A stretch of 64,000 bases of DNA from Thermoanaerobaculia bacterium. GTDB taxonomy: Bacteria > Acidobacteriota > Thermoanaerobaculia > UBA5066. This document shows, piece after piece, positions 4,412 to 50,442 of this stretch. Below the pieces are notes generated by a model. That model ran no database searches, had not been told where the DNA came from, and worked only from the letters and a program-made list of their open reading frames with translations. Positions within the stretch are counted from its first letter, which is position 1, and every line of letters begins with the position of its first letter. The position numbers and the translations under genes are program-made. The stretch lies in NCBI GenBank assembly GCA_963746875.1, contig CAVVDA010000006.1:65111-129110 (forward strand). The letters are read 5' to 3'.

Positions 4412-4414
4412 CGA

Positions 4415-26107: not shown

Positions 26108-26255
26108 GGCCCCAGGCTGGGACGCCCATGCTCTCCGGGCTCCCCGTCAAAGACGTCGTGACGCGCTGCGGAATCTCCCGCGCCCAACCCCACATTATAG
26201 ATCGGGACCGGCGCGCTCCCGGTGTCCAAATCCACGTCTTTGGGCGTCATCGCAT

Positions 26256-28268
26256 TCACGGGGCGGCCCACACGAAAGCGCCGTCGCCGGTGCGCTGGCC
26301 GGGTGTGGCGCCGTCGTTCAGGACGCCGTAAACGAGGAACGGGCTCGTGCCCGAGGTCCTCACGACGTGCGCATAGCCCTCCGTCACGCCCGGCGCGCTC
26401 GTGGACAGGATGGCGTTGTACTGCGTCCATGCCCGGGCCCCGAGGGAAACTCCGGAGAGCCTCGCCGCGAGCGCACCCGTCGCGCCGTCGTACAGCTCGA
26501 TGTCGAACACGTCCGGCGGGTCACCCGGCTGGCCGAGGTTCGCGAGGGCGAGGTTCGTCCGGGTTTCGGCGTTCTGCTGGAGGCCGAAGAGCCAGAGAGC
26601 GCCGGCGGTCTGCCGCTCCACGACCTGCGCCGTGAAGAAGAGGCCGAACTTCCCGCCGCCTCCCGGAGTCGAGACGCGCGCCCCGAGGACGACGCCCCCG
26701 AGATCGCCGCCGGTCTCCCGGGCGAAGAGATTCCCGGCGAACGTCGGGCCGGCCGGGCCGATTCCCGGCGTTCCCTGCCGGCGCATCCGGTCGACGAAGC
26801 CGGGCAGGATCTGCTGCTCTCCCGGGCCCAGGACGAGCGTCGTGACGGCCGCATGGTCCGGCGTCCCGATCGCGTCCGCGACGTACGTGAGCTGCAGCGT
26901 CTTCGGGGAGGCCGACCAGTTCGTCGCCACGAGCTCGGTCGTGAACGCCGGGGTCTCGACGAGCGCGGGAAGGGCGAGGAGGAGCTGGGTGGCGCCCGTG
27001 CTCGAAGGGACCGCGGGAACGTAGGAGCCGTCGGAGTTCGCCTGGTCGTTGATCACGGCGTAGGCGGCGTAGGGCGCGCTGCCGCTCACCCTCTCGACCC
27101 GGACGTACCCGTTCGCGAGCGAGAGGCCGTTCGAGGCGAGGATGCCGTTGATCTGTGTCCAGCCGCCCGGCGAGAGCGTCACGTCGGGAAGGGTCGTGGC
27201 CGAGGGCGCCGCGGGGTCGCCCGAATAGACCGTGAGCCGGAGCGCCACGTCGCCCGCCGACGCGCTTCCCGCGTTCTGGAGCGCGACGTTCGAGCGGTCC
27301 TGCCCGTTCTGCCTCAGGCCGAAAAGGTACGACGTTCCGGTCAGAGTCGCCGCGGGTGGCAACCCGGAGTAGGCGAGCCCGGCCCGGCCGGTCGGCAGGG
27401 CCGTGGTCGTCCGCGCCGTGAGGCCGATCTCGTGGAGCGGCACGCCCGAGACGAGGACGCGCAGCGTGCCGCCGCGGTCCCCGGAGCTTGGAATCGGGAT
27501 TCCGAGGGAAATCAGGTAGGCGATGGCGTCCGGGACGACGCGCTGCCGCCCCGCGGGGACGAGGTCCGTTCCGACTCCGCCGCCGCCGCCGAAGGCCCCG
27601 GCGTACTCGAAGGTGAGCGTCGCGTCCGACGCCCCCCGGTTCGTCAGCGTCAGCTCCGTCGTGAAGAAAGAGCCGCTTGCTCCGGCGCTGGTCAGGACGA
27701 TCGGCACGAAGAGCGACTCCTCGAGAAGCGCGACGGTCAGGTTGTCGGCCATGAACAGCGCCGAGGATTCCTGGCAGCCCGGGGGGGTGTCGTAATGGAT
27801 CACGACGGAGTTGAAGCCCTGCGCCGCGCCGAGAGTCAGGAGTCCGGTCGGCCAGGTCCCGGGGACGGGAGCGGTCGCGGTGCTCGTCGCCACGAATGCG
27901 CCGTCCATGAACCCGGTGATCCGCATGGTCGCCGACCTGTTGCAGTCGACTTCATCGGGCGCATACATGATCGAGGCGGCCGACAGGGTCCGGGAGAAGC
28001 TGACCGAAAGGTCGGCCGGGGGGGCCCCCAGGTTCGGGTAGAGACACAGGCCGGAGAAGCCGACCGGCGTGAAGCCCAGCACGTCGGCGAGCTGGATCGA
28101 GTAGCTCTGTCCGGGGGCCGTGAACCGCGCCGTGACGCCGCCGGCCGTGAGATCGAGCGGGAGCTGAGCCCTGTACGGCGCGGTGTCGAAGTCGAAGGTC
28201 ACGCTCTGGGCGGACGCCGGACGCGCCATGAGGGTCAAGCCGACGAGGATCAGCAGAATTCGCTTCAT
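26256..28268 (-). CDS. secreted protein of unknown function with two homologous ~240-aa modules
   Basis: ATG 28268 follows AAGGAGG. Signal peptide MKRILLILVGLTLMARPASAQ. The ORF is intact. Internal duplication: FFTTELTLTN ... YLFGLRQNGQDRSNVALQNAG ... GYVRVERVSGSAPYAAYAVINDQANSDGSYV versus AFTTELVATN ... LWLFGLQQNAETRTNLALANLG ... GYAHVVRTSGTSPFLVYGVLNDGATP. Confidence 0.7.
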   Translation of the reverse strand: MKRILLILVGLTLMARPASAQSVTFDFDTAPYRAQLPLDLTAGGVTARFTAPGQSYSIQLADVLGFTPVGFSGLCLYPNLGAPPADLSVSFSRTLSAASIMYAPDEVDCNRSATMRITGFMDGAFVATSTATAPVPGTWPTGLLTLGAAQGFNSVVIHYDTPPGCQESSALFMADNLTVALLEESLFVPIVLTSAGASGSFFTTELTLTNRGASDATLTFEYAGAFGGGGGVGTDLVPAGRQRVVPDAIAYLISLGIPIPSSGDRGGTLRVLVSGVPLHEIGLTARTTTALPTGRAGLAYSGLPPAATLTGTSYLFGLRQNGQDRSNVALQNAGSASAGDVALRLTVYSGDPAAPSATTLPDVTLSPGGWTQINGILASNGLSLANGYVRVERVSGSAPYAAYAVINDQANSDGSYVPAVPSSTGATQLLLALPALVETPAFTTELVATNWSASPKTLQLTYVADAIGTPDHAAVTTLVLGPGEQQILPGFVDRMRRQGTPGIGPAGPTFAGNLFARETGGDLGGVVLGARVSTPGGGGKFGLFFTAQVVERQTAGALWLFGLQQNAETRTNLALANLGQPGDPPDVFDIELYDGATGALAARLSGVSLGARAWTQYNAILSTSAPGVTEGYAHVVRTSGTSPFLVYGVLNDGATPGQRTGDGAFVWAAP

Positions 28269-28340
28269 GAGCGGCCTCCTTGGTTTCTTCGTCCGGCGGC
28301 CTCGCGCCGGACCGGCCCTTAGAAGCACGATTGCTGCCCT

Positions 28341-28375
28341 GGATCGAGAGGAAAAGAAAGGGATCGAGAGGAAAA
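28341..28375. repeat. tandem direct repeat GGATCGAGAGGAAAA x2 (20-bp period) in the leader of the secreted-protein gene
   Basis: 28341..28355 and 28361..28375 are identical 15-mers. On the minus strand they read TTTTCCTCTCGATCC, about 75-105 nt upstream of ATG 28268. Confidence 0.8.
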
Positions 28376-28403
28376 AAAGGGGGGAGGGATTGCTCCCTCC
28401 CCC
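28372..28403 (-). terminator. rho-independent terminator downstream of the large multicopper oxidase
   Basis: Perfect 10-bp stem GGGGGAGGGA (28380..28389) / TCCCTCCCCC (28394..28403) with loop TTGC. On the minus strand it is followed by T7 (28372..28378) and lies 27 nt after the stop at 28430. Confidence 0.8.
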
Positions 28404-28429: not shown

Positions 28430-31400
28430 TTACGGTACCGTCACCGGGGTCGGAGCCCCGAAGTTGACGTACGCGGAGGGCCCTGCTGCGTTGAAGGACT
28501 GCACGCGGAAGTAGTACGGAACGCCGCGCAGCAGGCCGAGCGTGCCGCCGGGTGTCGTGAACACCGTCACGTTGGCGCCGACAGTGCCCGTGCCCACGCC
28601 GCTCGTGAATGCCGCGTTCCTGTGCCCACTGGACCCTGAATCCGGTCTCGCGTGGTGCTGTTGTCGGTCCACCTGACTGTGAAGATGGCTCTCGTCGCGG
28701 AGAGAACAGCGCCCGTCACGGTGACAGCGCTGGGCGCCGCGGGCACCACGTTGGTGTTGACCAGGGCGGTATTCGAGAATCCGGACGTGGTGGTCTTCGT
28801 GGGGAAGCCCGTAGAAGCCGGGTAGACCTGCGTGTCGCCGACCACGTTCGAGGCGAATACCCTGAAGTAGAACGACGCCGATCGTGTTGCCGATGATGTT
28901 GCTGTAAAGTCGTGACGTTCGGCAGCGACGGTGAAGGTCTGAAGGCCGGTCAGGAAGGCGGCGTCATTCGCCCTCTGGATGGTGAAGCCCGTCTCGTTCA
29001 GGGAGTTGTCCGTCCAGTTCAGGACGATTGCCCTGCCCGAGCCGCTTCCGGTCACGACCGCGCTGAGCCCGGTAGGAGCGTTCGGCGGCGATCGCGAACG
29101 CCGAGCGAGTGCATCATGTCCATCTCTTCGTGGGCGAGGATGTGGCAGTGCCACACGTACTCCCATCCGAAGTTGACGTCGTGGTTCAGGATCTGATTGA
29201 TCGCGATTCCCTGCGGGTCGAGCCAGCCGGCGGGCGGCGGCGGGATCAGCGGGGCGTTGAGAGGCAGCGTCGGGTCGATCAGGCGGACGCTGTTGGGCAC
29301 CTGCGAAGGGGAGCTGCGCCGGGGTGGGAATGATCGGTTTCATCGCGAGGAAAGTGATCTCGAGCGGGTTGATCCTGAACGTGTCCTTCCAGCCCAGCTC
29401 GTTGGCGTCCGGCGGCAGCATGATGCCGTCCTGGCCGACGCGGTTGAGGAGCTGAGCGTTGAACAGGTGGACGTGAATCGGGTGCGTGTCCACGCCGTTG
29501 TGGAAGATCCTCCAGATCTGGGTGCCGTCGCCGAGCGACCCGACGATGGATCCGGACACCGAGCCGGAGATGATGTCGGTGGGCGGGGCTGCATAGCCGT
29601 ACATGGTGAGCAAGCGCGGCTCCGGGCGTCGGGTTGGAGAGCCCGATCATGCCGCTCATGCGGCCGAACTGCGTGTCGTACACGCCGCCCATCTCGTCAT
29701 GGATGCCCTTCGTCTGGAGCGGGATGGTGACAGCAGGCTGCAGAACGCCGGCGCCGTTGATGGGCTGGAAGGTCTTCTGCGTGTCGGCGATCTGCACATA
29801 CTGGGTCGCCGGAGCCGTCGGGAAGATTGTTTCTGTACGCGGAGTTGTAGGCGGCCTGCGGAACGATGATCGGGTCCTGCGTGGCCTCGAAGACGCCGCG
29901 CTTGACGCCGGGGCCCTTGGCGAACACCGCGTTGAGGTTCGCGAGGGTGACGCCGGCAGTCAGCGGCGCCGACGCGGCGATCACCCTGATCTGCATGACC
30001 GTGCGGGTGTTGGGGCCGTAGCCGGGCAGCGTGTCGGGCGCGCCGCCGATGTCGATCTGGCTGCCGTCGCCCGTGTAGTAGTCGTAGACGCTGACGCCCG
30101 CCGGGAACGCCGCGGGAGCGTCGTTGTAGAGGATGAGCGTCTTGCCGGCGAAGGCCGGTGAAGTCGACGATCACGTCGGCCCGCTCGGCCGGTCCGAGGA
30201 GGAGCGAGTGCTGGTTGACGTTGCCGAAGTTGAAGGTCGTCGCGTTGAGGTTCCAGCCGATGGGCTGCTGGGGCACCACGACGGGGGCCGGCAGGAAGCC
30301 GCCCTCGGTGCCGATCTGGATCCAGGCCGGTCCGGCCTTCGCGGCATCGGGGATGCCGCTCGGCGTGAGGGCGTTCTGGTTCGCCGGGTTCACGGTGACC
30401 GGGACCATCGCGACTTCCGTGCAGTTGGCGACAGGTGCGGGTCGACGCAGGGAACGGCCGGCGAAGCCCGATGGGAGCGCCGTGACGCGGCCGTCGTCGG
30501 GGAAGTCTTGTCCGCGGCCACGTAGAGCTGCAGGTTCAAGAACCGGTCATTGGCCGCGTTCAGGACGCGGAACCGGTAGGCCTTGGGCTCGACTTCCATG
30601 TACGGGTAAGCCGTGCCGTTGACGATCGGCGTGTCCATGAAGGCCTCGCCCGGCATGGAGGGGTTCGGGGTGCCCGGCATGAGCGGCGGCTCCCAGGGGG
30701 CGGAGCAGGGGAAGTTGACCGGATCCGGGGGGAACACGTCGCAATTGGGTTCGTGGAAGGGGTTCGGGACCGGCCCGACGTCGATGCACCCCGCCGGGAG
30801 CCCGTTGACGCACGTCGGGGTCGGCGCCACGAACCACGGGCCGTAGTGCCAGCGGCCGAAGGCGTTCGCGCCGGCGAGATCCCACGGATTCTGGGCCGAC
30901 ATGTAGACGTGGGGGTACCAGAGGTCGCCCGCGACGGCGGCCGTCAGTTTTCCGGCGGCATCCCTTGGGCCCGTTCCCCAGTTCCACGTGGGGTCCTGGG
31001 CGAAGATCACGTTCGGGTCCACCCAGGTCTTGTCCTGGATGACGAGGGGAATCCCGATGCCGGGGAGGACCTGGAGCAGGCCGGGGTTCACGCCGGAGAC
31101 GTTCGTTCCGGCGATCATGTCCTGCTCGACCTGGTCGGTGATCACGTAGCCGGCGGCCTCGCCGGCGAAGACGTTGAGGCGCGTGATTCCCATCGCATGG
31201 TCGTGGTAGAACATCAGGCGGGCGCTCTGGGCGTTCGTGTAGTAGAACGTCGCGGCGCCGTCGGGCGGGATCCGGCATGTCGGGCACGTTCCGCGCGCTC
31301 ACGCCCTTCGGGTACGCATGGGCGGAAGCCGGCGCGGGGGTGATCCACTGGTGGGTCGTGCCGTCGCTGATCCACACGGTGTTGTTGCCGTGGAGGTGGA

Positions 31401-32556
31401 TGGTGGCGCGGTTCTGGCTGTACTTGCCGCCGTTGGGGACCCATCCCGGAGCCCATGACCGTCTCGTCCACCGGGAGGACGAGGTCTCCGCCCGACGCCG
31501 GGCGGAAGCAGGTTGTAGAACTTGATGCGGGCGGGCAGGTTGCTGCCGGCCACGATGACAGGCCCCAGGTAATGGGGGAAGTCGAAGGCCGTGACCTGGG
31601 TCGCGGTTCCGGGATAGAGGATCGGGGTGCCGTCGAGATACGTCAGCGGAACCGCGGTGCCGCGCCACGGGACGTTCGTCGGGGTCGTCAACTGCACGTA
31701 GCCCCGCATCCGGGTCGGCGGCAGGTCGGAGTGGAACTTCTCGTAGTACTCCACCAGGCCGATGACGTAAGAGTCGGAGAAGGGGAGGGCTGCCGTGGCG
31801 AAGTTCTCGGCCTTGGCAACCGGGATGTACTGGCCGCTGGTCGAGGCCGGGCCAGGGTCCGAGACGGTTAGGCGTGACGAGGGTGTTCGCGCCGGCTGCC
31901 GTCAGTCCCGGCAGCTTGTCGACGAACTTGCGGATGCCGCCGGTGACGGTCGCGGGATCGAGCGACGCCGTGGCGGCGGCGCCCGTGCCGCAGGCCGGCT
32001 GCGACGGGACACCTGTAACGGATCGATTCGCACCGCAGAGGGTGGGATCGTCCTCGATGAACACGAAGGGAGCCATGTAGCCGGTGCCGCCCAGGCCGCC
32101 GGCGATGGCGGTGATGACACCGGCAGATCAACGGTGAAGCGGAACGAGCCGGCGCCTGATGCCCGCGCCGTAGGCGTCGAGGACGACGCCAAGGGGAGTC
32201 GACGTATCCGCTGCCTCCGGCGTCGAGCGTGACGGCGGCGACGGGTCCCGCGGGGAGCGGGCTGTTGGCCCAGTTAGCGTAGGGACCGAAATAGTGCGGG
32301 GTCCCGCCGGGACCGTCGATGCCCGGGAGGGGCGGGATGGCTGCGCCGGGGGCCCGATGGATGGCCTTGCCCGCGACGCCCGGCTTCAGGCCGAGGGCGC
32401 GCGCGCGCTTCGCCGCTGCCTTCTTCTCCGCGTTCGTGACTTTTCCCTTGAGCACGCCGCCGGCGGCGGGTCTTTGGTCCCCTGCGCGCCTGCCTGACCA
32501 AAGGTCAGGGCGAGCAGTGCCGACAGCACTAGAACCGGGAGCTTCCTACGAATCAT
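28430..32556 (-). pseudogene. large secreted multicopper oxidase with N-terminal extension and two C-terminal FN3 domains; at least 10 frame switches
   Basis: Signal peptide MIRRKLPVLVLSALLALTFGQAGAQG (ATG 32556, preceded by GGAGGAGG). Copper motifs: TIHLHGNNTVWISDG, MFYHDHAMGITRLN, HPIHVHLFNAQLLNR, WHCHILAHEEMDMMH. FN3-like repeats: NWTDNSLNETGFTIQRA ... YFRVFASN, and WTDNST ... YYFRVQSFNAAGPS. Ends TPVTVP, with the stop at 28430. Confidence 0.8.
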
Positions 32557-32720
32557 GATGGTGCCTCCTCCATTGAAAATGCCTGGTTGAGATGCGTTGC
32601 CGGGGATAGGCCCTCCCAGTGAGCCACGAGTTGACGCCGTTGTCGCTGATATCACGGCCAAAGGATGGGTCCGGATCGTACCCGATACAAGAGTGGAAAA
32701 CACGGAACTTATTGCTGCGC

Positions 32721-32778
32721 ATTATGTTAGTAGAGACTACGGAGTCGGCACGCCACGGCTACGTAGAAACTACGGAGT
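32721..32778 (-). promoter_or_regulatory. candidate promoter/operator: two 16-bp direct repeats (33-bp spacing) abutting a -10-like CATAAT
   Basis: GTAGAGACTACGGAGT (32730..32745) and GTAGAAACTACGGAGT (32763..32778) match at 15 of 16 positions. On the minus strand the proximal repeat is followed by TAACATAAT (-10-like at 32726..32721). They sit in a low-GC 225-bp spacer between the TonB receptor stop and the oxidase start. Confidence 0.4.
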
Positions 32779-32782
32779 ACAA

Positions 32783-35109
32783 TCAGAAGCGCCATCCGAC
32801 GTTCGCGAAGAACATCCGTCCGGGCTCGGGGACACGGACCCCGGACCGGTACGGGTCGCGCTGGTAGGAGAGAGCTTCGTAGTAGAAGCGGTCGAAGAGG
32901 TTCGCGACCCCGCCCGTCAGGACGAACCCGCCGACGTTCGCTCCCAGCCTGAGGTTGGCGATGCCCCACCCCGCCGTCGGGGTCTCCTCGAGGTCGGTGT
33001 CCACCCGCGTCTGGGCCGCGGTGAAAACTCCCTCGGCTTCCGCCCAGAGGCGGCCCGTGTCGTACCGGAGTCCGAGGCGCCCGCGCAGCGGGGGCATCTC
33101 GGCGAGGTTCGTCGAGTAGATCCCGAGCGCCGGCTGCGCGTCCTGGCTCCCACGCACGTAGGAAAGATCGCCCGAGAGAAAGATCCGGTCCGTCAGGGTC
33201 GCCACCGCGTTCATCTCGCCGCCGAGCAGCGTCGCGTCCACGTTCGCGTACGAGCGGGCGGACGTGTTCATGACGCCGGGTGCGATGTTGACGCGCGTCT
33301 GGTCGTGAAGCGCGACGAAGTCGGTCACCCGGTTCGCGAAGAGGTTCGACGCCCGCGTAGATGCCGGAGCGGCGGATCGAGAGCGCGACGTCGAGCCCCG
33401 TGTTGCGGCTCGGCGAGAGCGCCGGATTCCCGACCCAGTCGTTCCCGGTGCGCTTCACGGCGTAGTAGAGCTCGCTCGGCTCCGCGACGCGCACCTTGGT
33501 TCCGACCCCGCCCGAGATCTCGGTCCCTTCGGAGGGCTGGAACACGAGCCGGACGGAGCCCGACGGGAAGGACGTCCGCGTACGACGTCGAGCGCGTGTC
33601 GTTGTAGGCGTAGTAGAGATTCGTGTTGGCCTTCGCGGGATCGGCTCCGCCGGACGCCCAGTCGACCCGGGCTCCCGCGACGAAGCTCAGCCTGGCCGGA
33701 GAGCGGGTGCTTCCAGTCCGCGTAGAGGCCGGCGATGTCGGCGGTGGCTCCGGGGAGGCCGTACGAGGACATGTACGACCCCATCATGCTCATCTGGCCG
33801 ATCGTCTCCCAGAAGCGGTGGAACGCCTCGACACCGGCCGTGACCTCGGAGAAGAGGGTCGCCTGCAGCTTTCCGCCGAGGGTCCTGGAATTCGCGAGCG
33901 TCCCCATGCTGTAGCCGAGCGGGGCCGTTCCCGCGGACGTCCGGAACTGGTCGGTCATGAAGTGATCCACCTGCGTGTAGTACCCGAGGAGCTTCACGGC
34001 CGAGACGGCGCTTCCACCGCCCGCGATGTCGTAGGCGAGGCTGAGGCGGTCGGAGCGGTCCCACGGGCTGTCCATCTTCAGGTAGGGATAGAAGACCTGG
34101 TTCGCCTCCTGATGCGTCCACGCGACTTCCGCCGCGTGGCCCGCGAGCGGAGCGACGCGCAGCTTTCCCCACGCCGTTCCGACCTTGAAGGCGGCCGAGT
34201 CCACCTCCGACGGCTTGTAGTTCGTGAGCTCGGTGAAGCGCTTCCCCGAGCCGTCCACGTACGCGTCCGAGGAGCGCCACGAGAACCCCGCGAGCGCCGA
34301 GACCGTCTCGCCGCCGAACGAGACCGACGCCGCCGGGTTGAGGTAGCCCGCGGAGCCCGCCGCGAGGTTCGCCGTGGCATGCCAGCCCGCGTCGGGCTGC
34401 CGCGTCACGATGTTCACGGTTCCGCCGAGGCCGCCCTCGTTCTTCACGTCGAAGGGGCCCTTCCCGACCTCGATCCGGTCGACCTCGGCGAAGTCGAGCG
34501 TGGAACGAGGGCGGGTCCATGTGGCTCGGGCAGGCGCCGTAGATTCGCTGGCCGTCGATCAGGACGTTCAGGTTGTCCGACTGGAAGCCGCGCACGACGA
34601 CCTCGTTCGCGATGCCTCCCTTCCGGAGCTTCCAGACGCCGGGCGTTCCGGCGAGCGCTTCGCCGACGTCGCGCGCGGGGCTCTCGCGGATCTCCGCCGC
34701 CTCCACGCTGTCGCGGGGCGAGTCGCCGACGACCGTGACGGACTCACGGACGGTCGAGACGGCGAGCGCGAGGGTGACTTCCTTCGACTCGCCGGCCGCG
34801 AGGCGGAAGGGGGGAAGCGCCGTCGGCGAAAAGCCGGTCGCCTCCGCGACCAGGACGTACGTGCCGGGCGCGAGGCCTCGCGCGCGAAAGACTCCGCGCT
34901 CGCCGGCGGCCACGCGCAGGGCGCGGGCTCCGTCGGACGGAGTCACGGTGACGACGGATCCGGGCAGGCCGGTGCCGTCCACGGAGACGACCGCTCCGGT
35001 GATGGACGCGGTCGAGGTCTGGGCGAGCGCCGGGAGCGCACACGATGAGAAGAGGAAGAAGGACGAGCGCCGCGACGAGGCCGGGCGCCGAGTTCATTCG
35101 GAATCGCAT
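32783..35109 (-). pseudogene. TonB-dependent outer-membrane receptor, OprC/NosA-like copper type, with CarboxypepD_reg-like N-domain; at least 5 frame switches
   Basis: Signal peptide MRFRMNSAPGLVAALVLLPLLI, then a CarboxypepD_reg-like domain (GSVVTVTPSDG ... GTYVLVAEATGF). Plug domain: GIANEVVVRGFQSDNLNVLIDGQRIYGACPSHMDPP. Barrel fragments in ORFs 33455..34447 and 32783..33328, ending FANVGWRF. CPSHM is at 34518..34532 and HFM at 33956..33964. Confidence 0.8.
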
Positions 35110-35213
35110 CGAAAAACCCTCCATGAGATCGATGTGGAAGACGAGACTGCGGCCGCGGATCGGATTGCCGGGATTTGCATCCTCGGCGGCGAGTCCGCGG
35201 GCGAAGAGGCTCG

Positions 35214-35584
35214 TCAGATCTCGGGCGGAGGGGTCTCGGGCGGAAGCCGGCTGGAAAGGGCGCGATCGGGCGCGATCGGGCCCCCGATACGGGACCGGGC
35301 CGGCGCGGGAAGCGTCGGCGTCCCGGCGGGAAGCGGCGCTGCTATTCCCGTCGCCGGCGCGGAGCCGGGCGGCAGGGGAGCGTTCACGGAGTCATTGCAT
35401 CCGCAGCCGCGAGTCGGAAGGGCACTGGCATTCCGCCCCGGCGCACGGGGCAGCACACGCAGAGCATTCGCCCGCCACAGGAGCTGCCGGCCGGGAAGGC
35501 ACCCGTGATGACGGAGGCGAGGAAAACAAAAGCCGCCGCGAGCACCGTCGCGTGTGTTCCGGAGGGGCGTCTCGGACCGACCAT
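35214..35584 (-). pseudogene. candidate small secreted/anchored Cys-rich, Pro-rich protein (frame uncertain)
   Basis: ATG 35584: MVGPRRPSGTHATVLAAAFVFLASVITGAFPAGSSC. The next ~100 nt encode Cys clusters in all three frames (CGGRMLCVCCP / GECSACAAPCAGAECQCP / GCGCND). A GC3-rich Pro-rich frame (NAPLPPGSAPATGIAAPLPAGTPTLPAP ... PPETPPPEI) then runs to the stop at 35214, about 100 nt upstream of the receptor start. Confidence 0.3.
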
Positions 35585-35801
35585 GGCTCTCGGAGAAATA
35601 TCGGGCCGTCCAGTGCTCAAGAAAAGCGTGGAAAATACGGGCTGTCTCCGCGCTTTACACGGACCCGGAAACTGTTCAGAGACCGTATGTTCTGCGGTTG
35701 ATTATCCCCTCTTCGACAATCCAAATTGACCCCTTAAGAGAGTTGCCACGTGTTGGCGAATTACTGGGGCGGTGAATTCACCTGCCCGGAGGAGGCTTGA
35801 A

Positions 35802-38103
35802 ATGCTGAATCGACGTGACCTGATCAAGACCGGCCTTGGAGCAGGCGCTGGCCTTGCCCTCGGGAGGTGGGGCAAGTGGGGAAGCGCTAACGCCGCGTTC
35901 TTCAACCAGAGCCCCAACATTCCGCTCTTCAAGACCGCGCTCCGCGGCGTGGGCCCGGGGGGAATTCCGGTGGCGGTCCCGGGCTTCCTCGGGGGCTTCA
36001 CGAAGGCGCCCGTGACCGGCGTGTCGCATTACGAGATCGGCATCATCCAGTTCCAGGATCAGATCTGCCCTCCCGAAAGCGGTCTCGGCCCGACGAAGCT
36101 CTGGGGCTACGCCCCGGCAAAAGGGCTGGGCGGGTACATCAAGCCGACGCACCTGAGCGGCCTGATCGTCGGGAAGGGTCGCTCGCCTGGCGTCCCAGGA
36201 CAGCGGCGCAGCCGATCCAGATCAGCTTCCAGAACCTGCTCTTCGTCAACAAGCACATCCTGCCCGTCGACACGGACCATCCCGGGCGCGGAGCAGGCGA
36301 TCAACCGGACGGCCGTCCACCTGCACGGCGGCCTCGTCCCCTGGATCAGCGACGGCGGCCCCTTCGACTGGTTCGACCCGTACGGGCGTCACGGCGCGAG
36401 CTTCCTGAACAACAAGGTCCTGAATCCGCTCGCCCTTCCCGGCTCCGCCGAGTACTACTACCCGCTGAACCAGAGCGCCCGGTTCATGTGGTACCACGAC
36501 CACGCCGTCGGCATCACGCGGCTGAACGCCTATGCCGGAATCGCCTCCGGCATGCTGATCCGGGACACCTTCGAGGCGGGCCTGATCAACAAGGGCCTGC
36601 CCAACTACGTCGAGGCCGGCGGCAACGAGATCCCGCTCGTCATTCAGGACAAGATCTTCGTCGGCACGAGCCACATTCACAACTCCGACCCGACCTGGCC
36701 GGGCCCGACGGCGCCCGGCAGCCTCTGGTACGCGCACGTCTACGATCCGGACGCGGTGGGAGCTGTCGCCCGGAGGCCTGACGCCTTCCGGATCCGTCCT
36801 GCATCCCCGAGTTCTTCGGCGACACGATGCTGGTCAACGGCACCGTCTTCCCGCAGGCCACCGTCCAGGCGCGCCGCTACCGCCTGCGGCTTCCTCAACG
36901 CCTGCAACGCCCGGTTCCTGAACCTGCAGCTCTACGTGGCCGACGGCAGCCCGAACGGGATCACGCTGGATCCCCACACGGCAATCCGACGAACGACGCC
37001 TTTCGTCAACGCCGCCACGGGCGACTCGTCCTTCCTCCAGATCGGCACCGAGGGGGGCTTCCTCGCGCACCCGGTGAAGGTCCCGTGCAACCAGCCGCTG
37101 ATCGTGCCTCTCGACAGCCCGATCGGAATCCGGTCAGCCGACCCGTCGAAGGTCAGCAAGTCGCTCCTCGTGGCGCCGGCGGAGCGGCCCGACGTCATCG
37201 TCGACTTCAGCACGTTATGCCGGGCAGAGCATCATCCTCTACAACGACGCGCCCGCCCCGTTCCCGGGTGGAGACGACCGGTGACGACTACTTCCCGGGC
37301 CTTGCGAACGACGGCGGCAACCCGGTCAACGGCTCACGACGCGGACGGCTTCGGCCCCAACACCCGGGTCCTCATGCGGTTCAACGTGGTCGCGGCGTCA
37401 GGCGCCGCCGACTGACCTGCGCATCGACACCGCCCGACGGACCTGTCAAGCCGGCATCGATCCGTTCCTGGTCCCCTGGGGCATGACGACGCAGCTGCCT
37501 CACTCCGGGGTCACCGCGCGCTTCCTGAGCCTGAACGAGTACTTCGACGAGTACGGACGGCTCATCCAGATCCTCGGCAATGCCGCAGCGCCGTTCGGCT
37601 CGCCCTATGAAGGAACGCGCCACGTACCTCGGCTATCCGCCGTACGGCAACCCGACGTGGGGGCTACCGAGGAGTCGGTCCACTACGGCGACACGGAAGT
37701 GTGGGAGATCTACAACACCACCGGCGACGTCCACCCGATGCACTTCCACCTCGTGAACGTCCAGGTCATCAACCGGCAGTTGTTCGACGTGACGGCGCAT
37801 TCTCCGACTTCGCTTCACGCGGACCCGTCATCCCGCCCGAGCCGAACGAGCTGGGGTGGAAGGAGACGGTGCCGATGTATCCGGGCACGGTCACCCGGGT
37901 CATCATGAAGTTCGACCTGCCGCTCGATCGTCGACAGCAAGGGGAAGACCGTCAACACGAAGGAGATCCGCGGCTTCCAGCTGCCCATCACGAACGGGCA
38001 GCCGCCCGTCAGCCCGCGGACCGGCGGCGACGAGTACGTCTGGCACTGCCACATCCTGGAGCACGAAGAGCACGACATGATGCACGCGCTCGTCGTCAAA
38101 TAA
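35802..38103 (+). pseudogene. Tat-exported three-domain multicopper oxidase (CotA/bilirubin-oxidase-like); at least 6 frame switches
   Basis: GGAGGAGG precedes ATG 35802. Twin-arginine signal MLNRRDLIKTGLGAGAGLALG. Copper motifs: TAVHLHGGLVPWISDG, FMWYHDHAVGITRLN, HPMHFHLVNVQVINR, YVWHCHILEHEEHDMMHALVVK, then the stop at 38101..38103. Confidence 0.85.
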
Positions 38104-38247
38104 CGGAATCCGGAATCAAGAGATCCGGTGAGACTCCGATTGGCCCCGGCGCTTCGGCGCCGGGGCCATTCTTCTTCTCGGTGCCTGAGCAGCCTGCTTC
38201 ATGGCGTTCGAGCAGCGGTTTTCCGGCATAAGGTGAGGAGGCGGAAT

Positions 38248-39690
38248 ATGAAGCGGCCTGTCGTCATCACTGCCGTCCTCGCGAGCGCCCTCTTTCTCTT
38301 CCTCGCGGGAGTCTGGGCCGGCCACCGCTCGCCGGGCGGGGCCGCCGCAGCCGCGAGCGGGAAGAAAGTCCTCTACTGGGTGGACCCGATGCACCCGGCG
38401 TACAAGGCCGACAAGCCCGGCATCGCCCCCGACTGCGGCATGCAGCTCGAGCCCGTCTACGCGGACGGGAGCACGGGGGACGGCAAGGCCCTTCCGGCCG
38501 GCGCCGCGAAGGTGACGTCCGAGCGCCGGCAGATGATCGGGGTGAAGGTCGGGACGGCCGTCGAGGCCGGCGGGACGCAGAGCATCCGGACGCTCGGGCG
38601 CGTGGCCGCGGACGAGACGCGGGTCTACCGCGTGACCGCGGCGGGCGACGGCTGGATCCGCGAGGTCCTGCCCGTGACGGCCGGCAGCCTCGTGAAGAAG
38701 GACCAGATCCTGGCGTCCTTCTACGCCCGCGAGTTCCTCGCGGCCCAGCAGAGCTACCTCTACGCGCTGCGCGCGCTCAACCGCTTCGAGGCCGACAAGA
38801 CGGAGACGCCCGACCAGATCAGGCAGACGAACGCCAACATCCAGTCGGCGAAGGAGAGCCTCGAGAACCTCGGCATGAGCGAGCGGCAGGTCGAGGAGAT
38901 CGCGAAGAGCCGCGAGCTGGCCAAGAAGATCTACATCGTCGCCCCGGCCGACGGGTTCGTTCTGGCGCGAAACATCAACATCGGGCAGCGGTTCGAGAAG
39001 GGGTTCGAGCTCTACCGCCTCGCCGACCTGTCGCGCGTCTGGATCCTCGCCGACCTCTTCGAGCGGGAAGGGCAGGACATCAGGCCCGGACAGGTCGCGA
39101 AGGTGACGCTTCCCTACCAGGGGAAGACCTTCGCCGCGAAGGTCAGCGACATCCCTCCGCAGTTCGACCCGGCCACGCGGACGCTGAAGGTGCGCCTCGA
39201 GACGGACAACCCGGGTTTCGCCCTGCGCCCCGAGATGTTCGTCGACGTGGAGTTCGCCGTCGCTTATCCGCCCACGCTGACCGTTCCGATGGATGCCGTC
39301 CTCGACTCGGGGCTTCGGCAGACCGTCTACGTCGAGACGGAGGCGGGCGTCTTCGAGCCGCGGAGGGTCGAGACCGGCCGGAGCTTCGGCGACAACGTGG
39401 AGATCGTGAAGGGGCTCATGCCGGGGGAGAAGATCGTCCTCTCCGGCAACTTCCTCATCGACTCCGAGAGCCGGATGAAGGCGGCCGTGGCGGGCGTGCG
39501 CGGCGACTCGTCGAAGGACCCGGTCTGCGGAATGGACGTGGACGAGACGAAGGCCCGCGCCGCGGGAAAGACGAGCCAGCACGGCGGCGTCTCGTACTTC
39601 TTCTGCTCGGAGGCGTGCAAGAAGGAGTTCGACGCGAATCCCGCGAAGCACGCGGGCGCCCTGAAGGACGGCGGACCGGGACATGGTTGA
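38248..39690 (+). CDS. cusB: RND efflux periplasmic adaptor, CusB-like, with C-terminal YHS-type metal-binding domain
   Basis: GGAGG precedes ATG 38248; TM anchor present. N-terminal metal-binding motif [28 protein letters not shown], HlyD-type body, and C-terminal [45 protein letters not shown]. The ORF is intact. Confidence 0.85.
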
Positions 39691-42600
39691 GAAGGTCATC
39701 GACTTCTCGGTCAAGAACAAGCTCGTCGTCTTCATCCTCGTCGCCGCCGCGTCGATCTGGGGTGCCTGGTCGCTGAAGCAGGTGCCGCTCGACGCGATTC
39801 CCGACCTCTCCGACACGCAGGTCATCATCTACTCGAAGTGGGACCGGAGCCCGGACCTCGTCGAGGACCAGGTCACGTACCCCATCGTGACGGCGCTGCT
39901 CGGCGCGCCGAAGGTGAAGACGGTGCGGGGCTTCTCGGATTTCGGCTACTCGTACGTCTACGTCATCTTCGAGGACGGGACCGACATCTACTGGGCCCGG
40001 TCGCGGACGCTGGAGTATCTCTCCGGCGTCCTGCCGGGGCTCCCCGCCGGAGTGAAGACCGAGCTCGGTCCCGACGCCACCGGCCTCGGCTGGATCTTCC
40101 AGTACGTGCTCGTCGACACCTCGGGAAAGCACAGCCTCGCGGATCTGCGCTCCTACCAGGACTGGACTCTGCGCTACCACCTCCGGTCGGTGCCCGGGCG
40201 TGGCCGAGGTGGCGCCCATCGGCGGCTTCGGCCTGCAGTACCAGGTGAACGTCGACCCGAACCGGCTGCAGGCCTACGGCATCCCGATCGGCCGCGTCGT
40301 GGAGGCGGTGCGCGGCGGCAACTCGGAGACGGGAGGCCGCCTCATCGAGTTCGGCGGCACCGAGTACATGGTGCGCGGGCGCGGGCTACGCGAAGTCGCT
40401 CCAGGACTTCGAGAACATCGTCCTCTCCGCGTCGGAGACGGGGACGCCCATCCGGATCCGGGACGTCGGGCAGGTCACGATCGGGCCGGACCTTCGGCGG
40501 GGGGTCACGGATCTCGACGGCGAGGGCGAGGCCGTCTCCGGCATCGTCGTCATGCGGCAAGGGCAGAACGCCCTCGAGGTGATCGACCGCGTGAAGGCGA
40601 AGATCAAGGAGATCGAGCCGGGGCTTCCCGAGGGGACCAGGATCGTCCCGATCTACGACCGCTCGGAGCTGATCCACCGGTCGATCGACAACCTCCGGAC
40701 GACGCTGATCGAGGTGATCGTCACCGTCGTGCTCGTGATCCTCCTCTTCCTCTGGCACATCCCGAGCGCCCTCATTCCCGTGATCACCATTCCCGTCGCG
40801 GTCCTCATCTCGTTCATCCCCTTCCGCGCGATGGGGCTCACGGCGAACATCATGTCCCTCGGCGGCATCGCCATCGCGATCGGCGCCCTGGTGGACGCCG
40901 CGATCGTCGTGGTCGAGCAGACGCACAAGAAGCTGGAGGAGTGGGAGAAGAACGGCCGCCCCGGCAGCTATCAGGACGTCGTCGTGTCGGCGGTGAAGCA
41001 GGTCGCCGGCCCGAGCTTCTTCGCGCTTCTCGTCATCGCGGTCTCGTTCCTGCCGGTGCTGACGCTCGAGGCGCAGGAGGGGCGCCTCTTCAAGCCGCTC
41101 GCCTACACGAAGAACCTCTCGATGATCGTGGCGGCGGTCCTCGCCATCACCCTCGACCCGGCCCTCCGCCTCCTCCTGACGCACGTGAGAACCTTCGGCT
41201 TCCGCCCCGTGTGGCTCTGCAGGCTGGCGAACGCCGCGCTGGTGGGCAAGATCCACTCCGAGGAGAAACACCCGGTCAGCCGGTTCCTCATCCGGCTCTA
41301 CGAGCCCGTCGTGAAATGGTCGCTCCGGTGGAAGTGGGCGGTCATCGGCGGCGCGGTCTTTCTCCTCGTCGCCACGGTGCCGGTCTTCCGGCGGCTCGGC
41401 TCGGAGTTCATGCCGCCGCTCGACGAGGGGACGCTGTTCTACATGCCCTCGACGATGCCGGGCATCTCGATCACCGAAGCGCAGAAGCTGCTGCAGGTCA
41501 CCGACCGCGTCATCAAGCAGTTCCCCGAGGTGGACCGCGTCCTCGGGAAGGCGGGCCGCGCGGAGACCTCGACCGACCCGGCTCCGCTCTCGATGCTCGA
41601 GACGGTCATCACCCTGAAGCCCGCGTCGGAGTGGCGAACGGTGCCGACGTGGTACTCCGGATGGGCGCCGGAGTGGCTGAAGGGAATCCTGCGGCGCGCC
41701 TGGCCGGACCGGATCTCCAAGGAAGAGCTCGTCGACCAGCTCAACGAGGCGCTCAAGATCCCCGGCGTTTCGAACGCCTGGACGATGCCGATCCGGGCCC
41801 GGATCGACATGCTGACCACCGGGATCAGGACGCCGGTGGGGCTGAAGATCTCCGGGGCCGACCTGAAGGTGATCGAGGAGATCGGCGCCCAGGTCGAGGC
41901 GATCCTTCCCTCCGTGCCGGGGACGCGCAGCGTCTTCGCGGAACGGACGGGAGGCGGCTTCTTCCTCGATTTCGAGTGGAATCGCGACGAGCTGGCGCGC
42001 TACGGGCTGAGCGTCGAGGAGGCGCAGCAGCTCGTCCAGAACGCCATCGGGGGCGAGAACGTCACGACGACCATCGAGGGGCGGGCGCGGTACCCGGTCA
42101 ACGTGCGCTACATGCGCGATTTCCGGGCCGACCGGAACGCCCTCGAGCGCGTGCTGGTGCCGGTCGCGGGCGGGCAGAAGCACATTCCGCTCGGGCAGCT
42201 CGCGACCATGCGCGCGGCGAGCGGCCCCTCGATGATCCGGAACGAGAACGGGCTCCTGACCGGCTACGTCTACGTCGACCTTTCCGGGCGCGATCCCGCC
42301 GGCTACGTGGACGAGGCGGCGCAGCTTCTCCGCGAGAAGGTGAAGCTGCCGGCCGGCTACGCCCTCTCCTGGAGCGGCCAGTGGGAGGCCATGCAGCGCG
42401 TGCGCGAGCGGCTGGCGGTCCTCGTCCCCGTGACGCTCTTCCTCGTCTTTCTCCTCCTCTACATGAACACCCGCTCCGTCGTGAAGACGGGCATCGTCCT
42501 CCTCGCGGTTCCCTTCTCGGCGATCGGCGCCGTCTGGTTCCTCTGGCTGCTCGGCTACAACATGAGCGTCGGCGTCTGGGTCGGGCTCATCGCGCTGCTC

Positions 42601-42975
42601 GGGGTCGACGCGGAGACCGGCGTCTTCATGCTCCTCTACCTCGACCTCTCCTACGAGCAGGCGCGGAAGGAAGGGCGGCTGACCTCGCTCGCGGACCTGC
42701 GCGCCGCCATCGTCCAGGGCGCGGCGAAGCGGATCCGGCCGAAGTTCATGACGGTGGCGACGACCTTCCTCGGGCTCGTCCCGATCATGTGGGCCACGGG
42801 CACCGGATCCGACGTCATGAAGCGGATCGCGGCCCCGATGATCGGCGGCATCTTCACGTCGTTCCTCCTCGAGCTCGTCGTCTACCCGGCCATCTACGAG
42901 ATCTGGCGGTGGAACTTCGAGCTGAAGCGGAAGGTGGAACCCGTCGCGGACGCGCTCGCGACAGCGCCCGCCTGA
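39683..42975 (+). pseudogene. cusA: heavy-metal RND efflux pump, CusA type; two +1 frame switches (about 40198 and 40386)
   Basis: 8-nt overlap with cusB. N-terminus [22 protein letters not shown]. The TM4 signature GGIAIAIGALVDAAIVVVEQ is CusA-like rather than CzcA-like. The long intact part is ORF 40552..42975. Both switches are G-run expansions (cccgGGcgtg, cgcgGGctac). Confidence 0.9.
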
Positions 42976-42990
42976 AGAGGGAAGCCGCTC

Positions 42991-43347
42991 TCAGCGCGGC
43001 CGGCCGGCCCGGGACGACTCTTTCCGCTGCGCTCCGCGAAGCTGGGATTGCAGCGCGCGCAGGCGGCAGCCGCCGGGCGTCGCCAGGATCTGGGAGACGC
43101 ACGCCTGGTCGCAGCCCGCCTTGCCGGGCCAGCGCGAGCAGTACTTCAGGCGCACTTCGTTGCGGCCCGTGACGCGGCTGGCGATCGCCTGCGCGACGGC
43201 AATCCTGACGAGGGCCGCGTCCTTGGTCTCGGGACAGACGATCTCGCGATCGCCGCTGAGCGCACGATAAGCGCGGACGCCGGCGACGGCCGCCGGAACC
43301 GAGGCCAGAACCGTCGTGGCCGTGACGACCGTCGAAGTGGCGTCCAT
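42991..43347 (-). CDS. small membrane-anchored Cys-containing protein of unknown function
   Basis: Intact 118-aa ORF with an N-terminal hydrophobic helix (VVTATTVLASVPAAVAGV). Five Cys residues in IVCPETKD, LKYCSRWPGKAGCDQACVSQI and PGGC. Convergent with cusA. Confidence 0.5.
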   Translation of the reverse strand: MDATSTVVTATTVLASVPAAVAGVRAYRALSGDREIVCPETKDAALVRIAVAQAIASRVTGRNEVRLKYCSRWPGKAGCDQACVSQILATPGGCRLRALQSQLRGAQRKESSRAGRPR

Positions 43348-43434: not shown

Positions 43435-45133
43435 CTACCTCCGCTTCCGGTAGAGCTGCACGGTCTCGTTCGGCGACGCCACCAGCGGCTCTCCCAGCGG
43501 TTCCCATTCCCCGGTCGCGCAGCACCCTGGTCTTCACCGCCCGCGCTTTGGTGTTCGCGAAGTTGAAGGCGCGGTTCTTCTCCATCCAGTCGAGCGACCG
43601 CGCGTCGGGCAGGAAGATGTAGTCGAGGTCCCGGGAGGCGAGCGATACCAGCGTCGCCAGCTTCTCCTCGTCGTTGCGTCCGGCCACGTCCCGTTCCCAG
43701 GCGACGGGGACCGCGGTGCCGAACGCAACCGTGTCCTCGGGCCGGAAAGTCACTCCCCCGTAGGTCAGCGCGTTGTTGCGCGGCCTGGCGCCGTACTCGA
43801 AGACGAGCACGCTGCGCAGCGCTACGGCGTCGAAATCCGCGATGTGGACGGTTACGAAGCGGGCCAGGGTCCTGCCGGCGCTCAGCGTGTCGTCGCGCAT
43901 CAGTTCCACCGCGCGGCGCAGCGCCGGCATCGTCGGAGCCAGCCCCGGCGGATCCAGGTGCATCCGGTAGCCCAGGGCGACGTTCGCGAGGCAGGCCGCC
44001 ACGGCCAGCGCGGCCGTCACGTTGCGGCCGAGAGAGCTGCCACTCGTGTCCTTTTCAAAGGGGAGCCAGCAGAAAAGGAGCCAGCCGAACACCGCGGGCA
44101 TGGAGACAAAAGGGTTCAAGCCGGCGCCCATGAGCACCAGCATCAGCACCGGCGCCGTGCCGAGCCACAGCACTCTCCAGTGCAGAGCCTTCGCCCACTT
44201 CCCCCAATTGCGACCGAACTCTCTTCGCCGGTCCCACACCTGCAGCAACAGCGCCGAAACGGCGGCGAGCGTCAACGGAATCCCGATGCTGAAGCCGGCC
44301 AGCAGCACGTGGAGGTAGCTGCGTGACAACGGCAGATTCGCGTTCGGATCGGCGCCCCACACGAAGTAGTAGTCGTGGAGCCCCTCGAAGTTGGCGAGGA
44401 GCGCGAGAGAACCCGCGACCGCGGGCGGTCCCCACCACGTCAGCAGGCGCGTCGCCAGGCGGATCCGCTCCGCCCGGGAACCGAAGAAGATCCGGGCCGC
44501 CAGCAGAGGTCCGAACATCACGGCCATGTAGACCGGTGCCGTGGCCCGGTTCAGAATCGCCAGCAGAAGGAACAGCCCGCTCGCCGCCCACGGGCCCCAC
44601 GACGCCGTTTCATACGTGGCCAGATACCAAACCGCCATGTTGGACAGCAGCAGATACAGCATCAGGTCCATGCGGAAATCCGAGACGCCTCCATTTGCGG
44701 CGAAGACCGCGCGGAACGCCAGAAACGGCAGCGTCAGGCAAAACGCGCGGGCGGCGGGCAGGCGGCGGTATCGCGCGAGGTAAAGGAAGACGGACCATCC
44801 CAGCGACAGCATCCAGATCTCCTGAAACCAGATGCCGGCGTGCCGGGACCACGGCAGGACGGGGCTGAACAGGGCCGTGAAGATCCAGGGCAGGGAGACC
44901 GTGCCGACGTGAAGCGCCAGCTTCAACCCCGCCAGGACGCCCTCGTCCCGGGACACCGCCAGGACCGTCGCGTAGTCGTGGAGGTAGGCCATGGAATCGT
45001 AGAACGGTCCCGTCCGGGCATACAGCAGCGTGTTCAGCCGCATCGCGTAGAAGGTCTGCGCGAGTACGCCGAGCGCGACCAGAAGGAGGCCCGCGCGAAG
45101 AGCTCTCCGATCTTCAGCCATGGGATGACCCAT
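43435..45133 (-). pseudogene. polytopic membrane protein with C-terminal soluble domain, unknown function (possibly GT-C-like); one frame switch near 43515
   Basis: About 11 hydrophobic helices (LLLVALGVLAQTFYAM ... MPAVFGWLLFCWLPF) within ORF 42854..45346. After a shift the natural end reads EWEPLGEPLVASPNETVQLYRKRR, with the stop at 43435..43437. Divergent from dnaE. Confidence 0.45.
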
Positions 45134-45161
45134 GGAAGGGCGCACTACAATCGCCGGCCGG

Positions 45162-48723: not shown

Positions 48724-48780
48724 CCGCCGAGGGCGAACGCCACGCCCGCGTTCGCCGCCGAGGAGGTCGCCGCCCAGCTC

Positions 48781-50440: not shown

Positions 50441-50442
50441 GC

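Follow-up and report, generated by a model that had tools for sequence, protein, structure and literature searches.

The DNA considered here is a stretch of 64,000 nt from a Thermoanaerobaculia bacterium (Acidobacteriota; assembly GCA_963746875.1, contig CAVVDA010000006.1, positions 65,111 to 129,110 of the forward strand), referred to below as the window, with a G+C content of 65-72%. A block of copper-related genes sits in it on the chromosome, amid housekeeping genes (dnaE, metK, ahcY, guaA, parAB), and falls into two divergent sets. On the minus strand, a small cysteine-rich leader open reading frame (ORF) and a hairpin-forming spacer precede a TonB-dependent receptor of the OprC/NosA type, which is followed by a giant multicopper oxidase (MCO) and a terminator. 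On the plus strand, a second oxidase (MCO2) precedes the CusB and CusA components of a Cu(I) pump. For the comparison with other genomes 91 loci were fetched in all (L numbers below), and the set of giant MCO loci kept at one genome per species comprises 80. The features of the block are the following:

35584..35214, minus: putative CutF/CruR-like leader ORF of about 122 aa, reconstructed across three frames by comparison with L082, L083 and L011
35110..35213, minus: leader spacer of 104 nt with a long hairpin, from RNA folds
35109..32783, minus: OprC/NosA-type TonB-dependent copper receptor of 773 aa, with five to seven assembly frameshifts
32556..28430, minus: giant MCO of about 1,370 aa (1,367 stitched), stitched across about 17 assembly frameshifts
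28403..28370, minus: intrinsic terminator, with a stem at 28403..28380 (10 pairs, 8 of them GC), a 4-nt loop and then the T-run CTTTTTTTCC
35802..38103, plus: second oxidase, MCO2, of 761 aa, stitched across about 12 assembly frameshifts
38248..39690, plus: CusB-type periplasmic adaptor with an intact frame, an N-terminal HMBD domain and a C-terminal YHS domain
39683..42975, plus: CusA-type Cu(I)/Ag(I) resistance-nodulation-division (RND) pump of 1,096 aa, with two assembly frameshifts near 40193 and 40374

The state of the reading frames has to be addressed before any of these genes can be interpreted. Indel-type frameshifts are abundant across the window, and both third-position G+C and a codon-usage Viterbi path show a reading frame that flips every few hundred bases in large stretches (the copper block at 28.4-40.4 kb, 3685..6524, 16270..19231, 45100..52250 and 57600..61350). 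Frames were repaired with a codon-usage dynamic-programming stitcher that permits skips of 1 or 2 nt and returns continuous proteins; the frameshift positions that it yields are imprecise, and homopolymer context cannot be judged from them. By this procedure the large oxidase needed about 17 frame changes, the receptor 5-7, the second oxidase about 12, CusA 2 and CusB none, and the 1,370-aa homologue P0002 aligns with its residues 33-1370 along the large oxidase in alternating frames. The presence of many frame breaks in five of the seven genes might be taken to mean that the block is made of decaying pseudogenes or of genes juxtaposed by chance, an explanation that is scarcely credible for several reasons. 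The dnaE gene requires about 11 repairs, after which the 1,061-aa product of stitching can be aligned over its whole length with Pol III alpha structures (for example 7PU7, 781 bits), and the glycogen phosphorylase gene (glgP) likewise needs frame repair, with a shift density that matches that of the copper block. Orthologous modules with intact frames exist in the short-read contigs L084 and L091, and the linkage of the genes recurs across many genomes. Because an essential gene such as dnaE is equally hit and intact orthologous modules are available, the frameshifts are to be read as assembly errors and not as gene decay; a pseudogenization specific to the block was ruled out, given the equal shift density in dnaE, glgP and other housekeeping genes. 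The closest relatives found, L082 and L083, are contigs fragmented in a like manner. The clusters of frameshifts have clean neighbours (19444..21771, 26259..28256, 38248..39690, 40400..42975 and 52323..54674), a patchy pattern that hints at a long-read metagenome assembly with polishing or coverage of varying quality.

The receptor contains an N-terminal CarboxypepD_reg domain followed by Plug (67 bits) and TonB_dep_Rec_b-barrel (92 bits) Pfam domains, and its best match in the PDB is OprC (6FOK). The OprC copper-site segments align in the receptor (GACPNRMDAP = GACPSHMDPP and ADHIMDN = VDHFMTD), so that all four copper ligands of OprC, arranged as CxxxM plus HxM (Cys-Met-His-Met) and presumably those numbered C143/M147/H323/M325, are kept. 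The top NCBIfam family is TIGR01778, 'TonB-dependent copper receptor', with 195.8 bits against a cut-off of 472.45, and because this score lies below the curated cut-off the protein is best filed as OprC-like and not as an equivalog. Import of ionic copper into the periplasm is its predicted role. The closest orthologues share 75-92% identity with it. Two more distant ones, from a Thermoanaerobaculia metagenome-assembled genome (MAG; L088, 63%) and a Holophagales MAG (L089, 55%), immediately precede a nos cluster with genes for an Fe-S flavoprotein, a Rieske protein, cytochromes b and c, NosZ and NosD (L088, 9001..20334; L089, 9001..19239). This arrangement recalls the classical NosA situation, in which a receptor of the OprC family is associated with the supply of copper to a periplasmic copper enzyme. 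The window receptor thus resembles OprC of Pseudomonas aeruginosa and NosA of P. stutzeri in its plug and 22-strand barrel, in the CxxxM/HxM ligands and in the nos link of its orthologues, but it differs from them in carrying the extra N-terminal CarboxypepD_reg domain, in its weak sequence similarity (E 1e-34 over 650 residues) and in its downstream neighbour, which is a giant MCO and not a PepSY-type protein.

The giant MCO located downstream of the receptor retains, after repair, the four copper-ligand motifs of the class (HxHG, HxH, HxxHxH and HCHxxxHxxxxM, all of which are carried by both oxidases of the block) in the form of HLHG, FYHDH, HPIHVH and HCHILAHEEMDMM. It scores above the cut-off for Pfam Cu-oxidase_2, its core is CotA-like with large insertions, its C-terminus holds two fn3 domains (35.2 bits against a cut-off of 25, once the frame is repaired) and its N-terminus reads as a Sec-type signal peptide, MIRRKLPVLVLSALLALTFGQAGAQG. 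The combination of more than 1,300 aa, a signal peptide, a CotA-like core and FN3 domains is that of OmpB/OmpC from Geobacter sulfurreducens and MofA from Leptothrix discophora, and the protein would be OmpB/MofA-like by architecture. The gap between the receptor and the giant MCO measures 226 nt, and inspection for terminators revealed no convincing one within it. The intrinsic terminator of the list starts 27 nt past the stop codon of the giant MCO (28430). Leader, receptor and giant MCO would hence appear to form one unit closed by a strong terminator.

Several features of the leader ORF point to a regulatory function. The window version, in which two assembly frameshifts fall within the cysteine cluster, reads CGG-x3-CVCC-x5-EC-x-CP-x-DS-x-CGC and ends with PETPPPEI-stop. 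Its intact homologues (P0241-P0245, 121-122 aa) have in common a basic N-terminus and a hydrophobic membrane or export segment, an invariant G-P-C-x-G-x3-C-x-CC ... E-C-x-C-P-P-x-S-x-C-G-C-R-D pattern and a PETPPP motif placed two residues ahead of the stop; three further, more distant members retain the cysteine cluster and PE/D-T/V-PPP. The operational criteria for CutF-like ORFs (Ozturk et al. 2023) comprise a length below 150 aa, an N-terminal export signal, a Cys/His motif, PP in the last 15 residues and a same-strand downstream gene within 1,000 nt. The leader has 122 aa, a hydrophobic N-terminus, seven cysteines, PETPPPEI-stop and the receptor 104 nt downstream, and by these criteria it would be a copper-sensing ORF of the CutF/CruR-like kind. 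A scan of the 91 loci with the same rules returned 10 ORFs, all of them directly upstream of a receptor, along with two probable false matches, and found no CutF-like leader upstream of MCO-CusBA strings. In L088, L089, L090 and L081 the small ORFs that precede the receptor are dissimilar in sequence and follow the same design, in which a membrane segment is combined with a Cys/His cluster and PPP lies close to the end. The 146-aa Cys-rich ORF of L081 was considered as a sequence homologue of the window leader and discarded, since no tblastn similarity links the two and only the design is common.

The spacer between leader and receptor is predicted to be structured. It measures 103-104 nt in six contigs, L084-L087 and L091 among them, and the RNAalifold consensus of six sequences is a long hairpin with 84% paired cells, where slid controls reach 35-48%. 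Twelve compensatory pairs support it, compared with 1-4 in the slid controls, a number reached by 7 of 500 shuffles, whereas the covariation score was reached by none of the 500. In the closing helix, the T-P-P codons of the leader (CCCUCC) pair with the Shine-Dalgarno (SD) sequence of the receptor, GGAGG. Given that this helix is invariant and covariation is consequently silent about it, its support comes from recurrent folds and from codon choice. Minimum-free-energy folds of single sequences contain the CCUCC-GGAGG pairing for the window, L082, L083, L084 and L086 as well as for the distant L081, and in those of L088 and L089 the leader 3' end pairs in an analogous way with the stretch that immediately precedes the receptor start. 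Likewise, CCTCC lies within the PPP codons in 10 of 10 loci, even though CCT accounts for only 9.7% of the proline codons in window genes.

Leaders with this logic have been described in the CutF-CutO system of Rhodobacter capsulatus and the CruR-BfrG system of Bordetella pertussis; CruR, which has CXXC and RAPP motifs, lies upstream of the gene for a TonB-dependent transporter (PMC9973294, PMC9426467, bioRxiv 10.1101/2025.02.05.636593). The window leader shares with both the small exported cysteine-containing protein, a proline stalling motif by the stop, a same-strand downstream gene and a predicted stem-loop masking that gene's ribosome-binding site, and with CruR the OprC-type receptor as downstream gene. 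In contrast to them, it bears a seven-Cys cluster (C-x5-C-x-CC ... C-x-C ... C-x-C) in place of CXXC or CxxxC and PETPPP in place of RAPP, its anti-SD lies within the PPP codons, it occurs in Acidobacteriota and it belongs to a very small family without DUF2946 match. Membership of the leader in DUF2946 was dropped for this lack of any Pfam match and for the tiny family found with hidden Markov models (HMM), and only a likeness in the way of working is retained.

The plus-strand set begins with MCO2, which in addition to its four copper motifs has a Pfam Cu-oxidase_2 match above the cut-off (E 7e-13) and CotA-type laccases as its nearest solved structures (E 1e-48 to 1e-50). Its N-terminus displays a twin-arginine motif, RRDLIK (MLNRRDLIKTGLGAGAGLAL), with 21.6 bits for Pfam TAT_signal against a cut-off of 22.7, and orthologues of MCO2 are found upstream of CusB in L082 and L015. 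The CusB-type adaptor combines Pfam HlyD_D23 (204 bits) with HMBD and YHS and scores over the cut-off for TIGR01730 (129 bits); ATG 38248 is favoured as its start over GTG 38128, and its stop overlaps the start of CusA by 8 nt. CusA reaches 1090.8 bits for TIGR00914 (cut-off 701) and 1023 bits against CusA from Escherichia coli, versus 490 bits against the CzcA-like ZneA, and the equivalents of M573, M623 and M672, the Cu(I) triad, are all methionines. In its Met-triad Cu(I) RND pump, CusB adaptor and periplasmic, putatively Tat-exported (twin-arginine) MCO, this set is comparable to CusCFBA plus CueO of E. coli and to the pco/sil islands. Unlike in those systems, the MCO stands ahead of cusBA in one operon, CusC, CusF and CusRS are missing, CusB carries HMBD and YHS, and MCO2, compared with CueO, is 761 aa long with large insertions and no Met-rich segment.

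An earlier note on this DNA, drawn up from its letters, had named most of these genes, and they do exist at about the coordinates that it gave, visible only after frame repair. The candidate Cys-rich small ORF on the minus strand was borne out and is conserved in relatives; the OprC/NosA-like receptor proved to have CarboxypepD_reg, Plug and barrel, with OprC as best PDB match; the secreted MCO of about 1,375 aa with two FN3 domains showed its four copper motifs and its fn3 match of 35 bits upon repair; and the terminator placed near 28372..28403 is indeed a 10-bp stem, 8 GC, with a T-run. The divergent plus-strand MCO, CusB with YHS, and CusA were likewise substantiated by motifs, Pfam and TIGR00914 (1091 bits). 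The note had reasoned that its view would fail if the corrected proteins lacked the copper ligands or receptor motifs, or if the genes were not co-localized in any related genome; all of these motifs are retained, and co-localization is present in L011, L081-L086 and L091.

The conservation of the copper genes among relatives is an observed fact, and it takes more than one form. The window's divergent core, with CusA, CusB and MCO2 on one side and leader and receptor on the other, is reproduced in L082 (receptor 92% identical). In this locus another CusB-CusA pair and another giant-MCO paralogue (44%, fn3) come immediately after the receptor (12374..21839), and from this gene order the modules of the L082 lineage are taken to have been duplicated and shuffled. 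L083 (receptor 88%, CusA 95%) has the order CusB, CusA, PAS kinase, response regulator, GAF/HisKA_3 kinase, NarL regulator, receptor, giant MCO and GGDEF protein. A complete module of kinase, NarL regulator, leader, receptor, giant MCO and GGDEF protein occurs in L083, L084 and L091, while L085 and L086, which are truncated contigs, show its 5' part; in L011 leader, receptor and giant MCO come after the end of a NarL regulator. L081, a locus on a distant chromosome from Acidobacteriota that coincides with L034, has giant MCO, CusB, CusA, FKBP isomerase, a small Cys-rich ORF and the receptor in succession on one strand.

The regulatory genes of these modules have counterparts in the window, two genes downstream of the giant MCO:

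~26129..23550, minus: GAF/HisKA_3 membrane histidine kinase and NarL/GerE-type response regulator, from Pfam, with approximate boundaries

The Pfam domains of the pair are GAF, HisKA_3, HATPase_c, Response_reg and GerE. Orthologues with 64-70% identity stand directly upstream of the leader in L083, and the order is the same in L084, L085, L086 and L091; it is this linked two-component system that probably sets transcription. The window kinase contains an insert of about 150 aa (~25500..25900, -) with CGTCRGWC that is absent from the 519-aa orthologues of L083, L084 and L086, and a metal or redox sensing segment is a possible reading of it. Between the terminator and the two-component system, a secreted protein of about 690 aa (26256..28328, -) without Pfam family is encoded just past the giant MCO; a homologue with 85% identity occurs in L083 (18159..19685), downstream of the receptor-MCO-GGDEF module, and the protein may belong to the system.

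The other recurrent neighbour of the giant MCO is the pump. CusB and/or CusA are found within 10 kb of a giant MCO in 17 of the 80 species-level loci, all of them from Deltaproteobacteria, Acidobacteriota or allies, with CusA 70-78% identical to that of the window, and at least seven of them (L001, L002, L007, L009, L022, L025 and L034) have CusBA after the giant MCO on the same strand. These strings invite another interpretation, which is rather doubtful: the whole block would be a copper-resistance island in which both oxidases are cuprous, the giant one acting at the surface on Cu(I) expelled by CusBA, and in which receptor and leader would be copper-induced by CutF-type logic and serve sensing or buffering instead of nutrition. 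Besides the one-strand strings and the adjacency in 17 of 80 loci, it can draw on the behaviour of CutF, a leader that switches on an MCO as copper rises (PMC9973294), and on the distribution of CutF-like ORFs, whose commonest location is upstream of Cus components. It is harder to reconcile with the receptor, which retains the copper-import site of OprC and whose orthologues stand at the head of nos clusters, a setting in which copper serves as a nutrient, and with the leader, which goes with the receptor and in no case with MCO-CusBA strings. Nor is the Met-rich segment of cuprous oxidases visible in either enzyme.

The interpretation that is modestly favoured over the locus as a whole is that of a regulated copper supply to secreted copper enzymes together with a Cu(I) detoxification arm, organized in two divergent units. 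The first unit, on the minus strand, would consist of leader, hairpin, OprC/NosA-type receptor, giant Sec-exported MCO and terminator. The receptor would bring ionic copper into the periplasm, where the giant MCO, exported unfolded by Sec, would be loaded with four copper atoms. NosA is thought to supply NosZ, and by analogy the giant MCO would be the client of the receptor in the window lineage. The FN3 domains would attach the enzyme to the cell surface or to a solid substrate, a placement that has been proposed for OmpB (PMC5566968). The leader would be exported co-translationally, its cysteine cluster sensing periplasmic copper while the ribosome occupies the PPP codons; a ribosome paused on PPP would mask the CCUCC anti-SD and leave the ribosome-binding site of the receptor free, and after its departure the hairpin would re-form and shut receptor translation. 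In an importer one would expect copper to switch expression off, as with CruR. The second unit, on the plus strand, would act as the Cu(I) detoxification arm, in which MCO2, presumably exported by Tat, would turn periplasmic Cu(I) into Cu(II) and the CusBA pump would expel Cu(I) with the help of an outer-membrane factor encoded elsewhere.

A number of observations weigh against this supply interpretation. The giant MCO is partnered with CusBA, in those 17 loci, more often than with the receptor, a distribution that fits detoxification equally well or better, and neither oxidase shows, in the stitched sequences read by eye, the Met-rich segment typical of cuprous oxidases. The receptor falls under the equivalog cut-off of TIGR01778, and the 226 nt that separate it from the giant MCO could house a separate promoter. 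As for the leader, three family members gave no Pfam match, DUF2946 included, at E up to 10, and its family is tiny, with four clusters in an HMM search of 1.84 billion representatives. The hairpin alignment comprises six sequences from about four lineages, and its SD/anti-SD helix (helix 1), being invariant, gains nothing from covariation. Since copper acts in opposite directions on CutF and CruR, the sign of the regulation here cannot be inferred from sequence. Finally, the scanned parts of the window contain no outer-membrane factor (OEP) for CusBA; neither OEP nor CusF is present among the called genes of L081-L083.

The balance of this evidence also determines how the broader claims of the earlier note fare. 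It had proposed copper supply for oxidase maturation, with CusBA as overflow protection, and the nos-linked receptor orthologues and the leader lend indirect support to the supply; a detoxification role of the oxidases is nevertheless equally supported, because at least seven genomes carry giant MCO, CusB and CusA on one strand. The supply reading is therefore plausible and backed by comparative data, with the CusBA partnership of the giant MCO keeping the detoxification reading alive. The layout had been called non-classic, and the combination does recur, in a less exotic form than envisaged, as two units (leader-receptor-giant MCO and MCO-CusB-CusA). With regard to the genes said to be absent, no copA, cueR, cusC, cusF or pcoB-type gene was found in the scanned parts, whereas the GAF/HisKA_3-NarL two-component system, located slightly beyond the coordinates given in the note, had been overlooked, so that the absence of a two-component system holds for the OmpR-type CopRS/CusRS alone.

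The family to which the giant MCO belongs leads to a further alternative. More than 4,400 homologues of 1,300-1,750 aa were found, with a best identity of 64% and many with fn3, and at one genome per species they are spread over Deltaproteobacteria, Anaeromyxobacteraceae, Acidobacteriota, Syntrophobacteraceae, Thermodesulfovibrionales, Clostridia, Paenibacillus, Chloroflexota, Planctomycetota and methanogenic archaea. The giant oxidase could be an OmpB/MofA-type surface enzyme for Fe, Mn or organic substrates, fed and protected by the copper genes nearby, a proposal that overlaps with the supply interpretation, differs from it solely in naming the job of the oxidase as the point of the locus, and is judged unlikely. 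The large size and the FN3 domains, as in OmpB (PMC5566968), are in line with it, and so is the presence of a homologue with 45-48% identity in a Geobacteraceae MAG (L074) and the wide distribution of the family in anaerobes, methanogens and Clostridia included. Furthermore, an FKBP isomerase, the analogue of MofB, whose gene neighbours mofA in Leptothrix, is encoded beside the giant MCO in nine related loci (L009, L012 (two copies), L015, L016, L025, L034/L081, L057 and L071). The window itself speaks less clearly for such an enzyme, as it has no match for FKBP and, in the flank scans, no MofC-like cytochrome or SCO1, and in this the giant MCO differs from OmpB/MofA, being linked here to a copper receptor and elsewhere to CusBA. 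The EXXE motif is represented by a single copy, which makes an iron-binding reading uninformative, and the substrate is not readable from sequence.

The homologues in anaerobes deserve a separate mention. Proteins with 46-54% identity occur in anaerobic archaea (Methanothrix, Methanoperedens, Methanosphaerula and Methanomassiliicoccales) and in Clostridia (L031, L052, L053, L059-L063, L065-L068, L070, L072, L073, L075, L076, L078 and L079), an anaerobe-heavy distribution that is odd for an O2-dependent enzyme class.

A bolder proposal, regarded as quite improbable, makes the giant FN3 oxidase part of the uptake machinery itself, oxidizing or mobilizing reduced, mineral- or sulfide-bound Cu(I) (or Fe(II)) at the surface for capture by the adjacent receptor. 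Were it true, the oxidase-permease logic of Fet3-Ftr1 would have a bacterial counterpart at the outer membrane, the CusBA found beside the giant oxidase elsewhere would serve metallation or recycling and not resistance, and in anaerobes the multicopper proteins of the OmpB type would be enzymes of metal acquisition.

Judged by sequence features, no protein of the block is of a new kind: the receptor is OprC/NosA-like, the MCO core is of the CotA type, the giant MCO is OmpB/MofA-like, the pump is CusBA and the leader is CutF/CruR-like. The literature searched does not seem to describe the way in which they are put together, namely an operon of OprC-type receptor and OmpB-type giant MCO under a CutF/CruR-like leader. 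The same seems to apply to the recurrent adjacency of giant MCO and CusBA, to the divergent leader family with its anti-SD in polyproline codons and to the receptor-plus-leader unit that heads nos clusters in sister lineages. The giant OmpB/MofA-type oxidases, whose function is unsettled and which are widespread in anaerobic bacteria and methanogens, are here embedded in copper trafficking, paired with a NosA/OprC-type importer and leader in Acidobacteriota and with CusBA in many Deltaproteobacteria and Acidobacteriota. Leader control of the CutF/CruR type would be extended to a new phylum and to a family invisible to Pfam, and the presence of receptor plus leader at nos clusters bears on the supply of copper to N2O reductase in uncultured soil Acidobacteriota. 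The value of the locus lies in the testable links that it offers between giant MCOs, copper import and efflux, and control by leader peptides.

Pfam scans of 1..14450, of 54660..64000 and of four flank proteins detected no P-type ATPase, MerR, OEP, CusF or CopB/PcoB domain, and 61500..62400, weakly coding, was judged by eye outside those scans. What the scans did identify was HPPD, a XerD-like recombinase, SLT, GuaA, PurU, HemF, Band-7, LptFG, MiaB, ParAB and PtsI, and reading of the remaining flanks by eye adds glycogen phosphorylase, a GGDEF-EAL protein, DnaE, MetK and AhcY. At the far end of the block one small ORF follows CusA:

42991..43347, -: 118-aa ORF with no family match in Pfam or NCBIfam

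The earlier note had let this Cys-containing ORF close the block. It was excluded from it for want of a family match and of a conserved place beside CusA, next to which it lies in no fetched locus; in two other assemblies it is a called gene after a neighbouring membrane-protein gene.

The stretch 19444..23057 (+), upstream of the two-component system, codes for a protein with PAS, GGDEF and EAL domains and for an outer-membrane protein resembling Porin_O_P; in L083, L084 and L091 the giant MCO, too, has a GGDEF protein as its fixed neighbour. A stand-alone receiver domain comes after glycogen phosphorylase at 16270..16730 (-). At 52323..54674 (+), as read from the translation, a fusion of an ArsR-type helix-turn-helix domain with an S-adenosylmethionine-dependent methyltransferase is continuous with adenosylhomocysteinase in one open frame, and MetK is located just upstream of it (51.1-52.2 kb).

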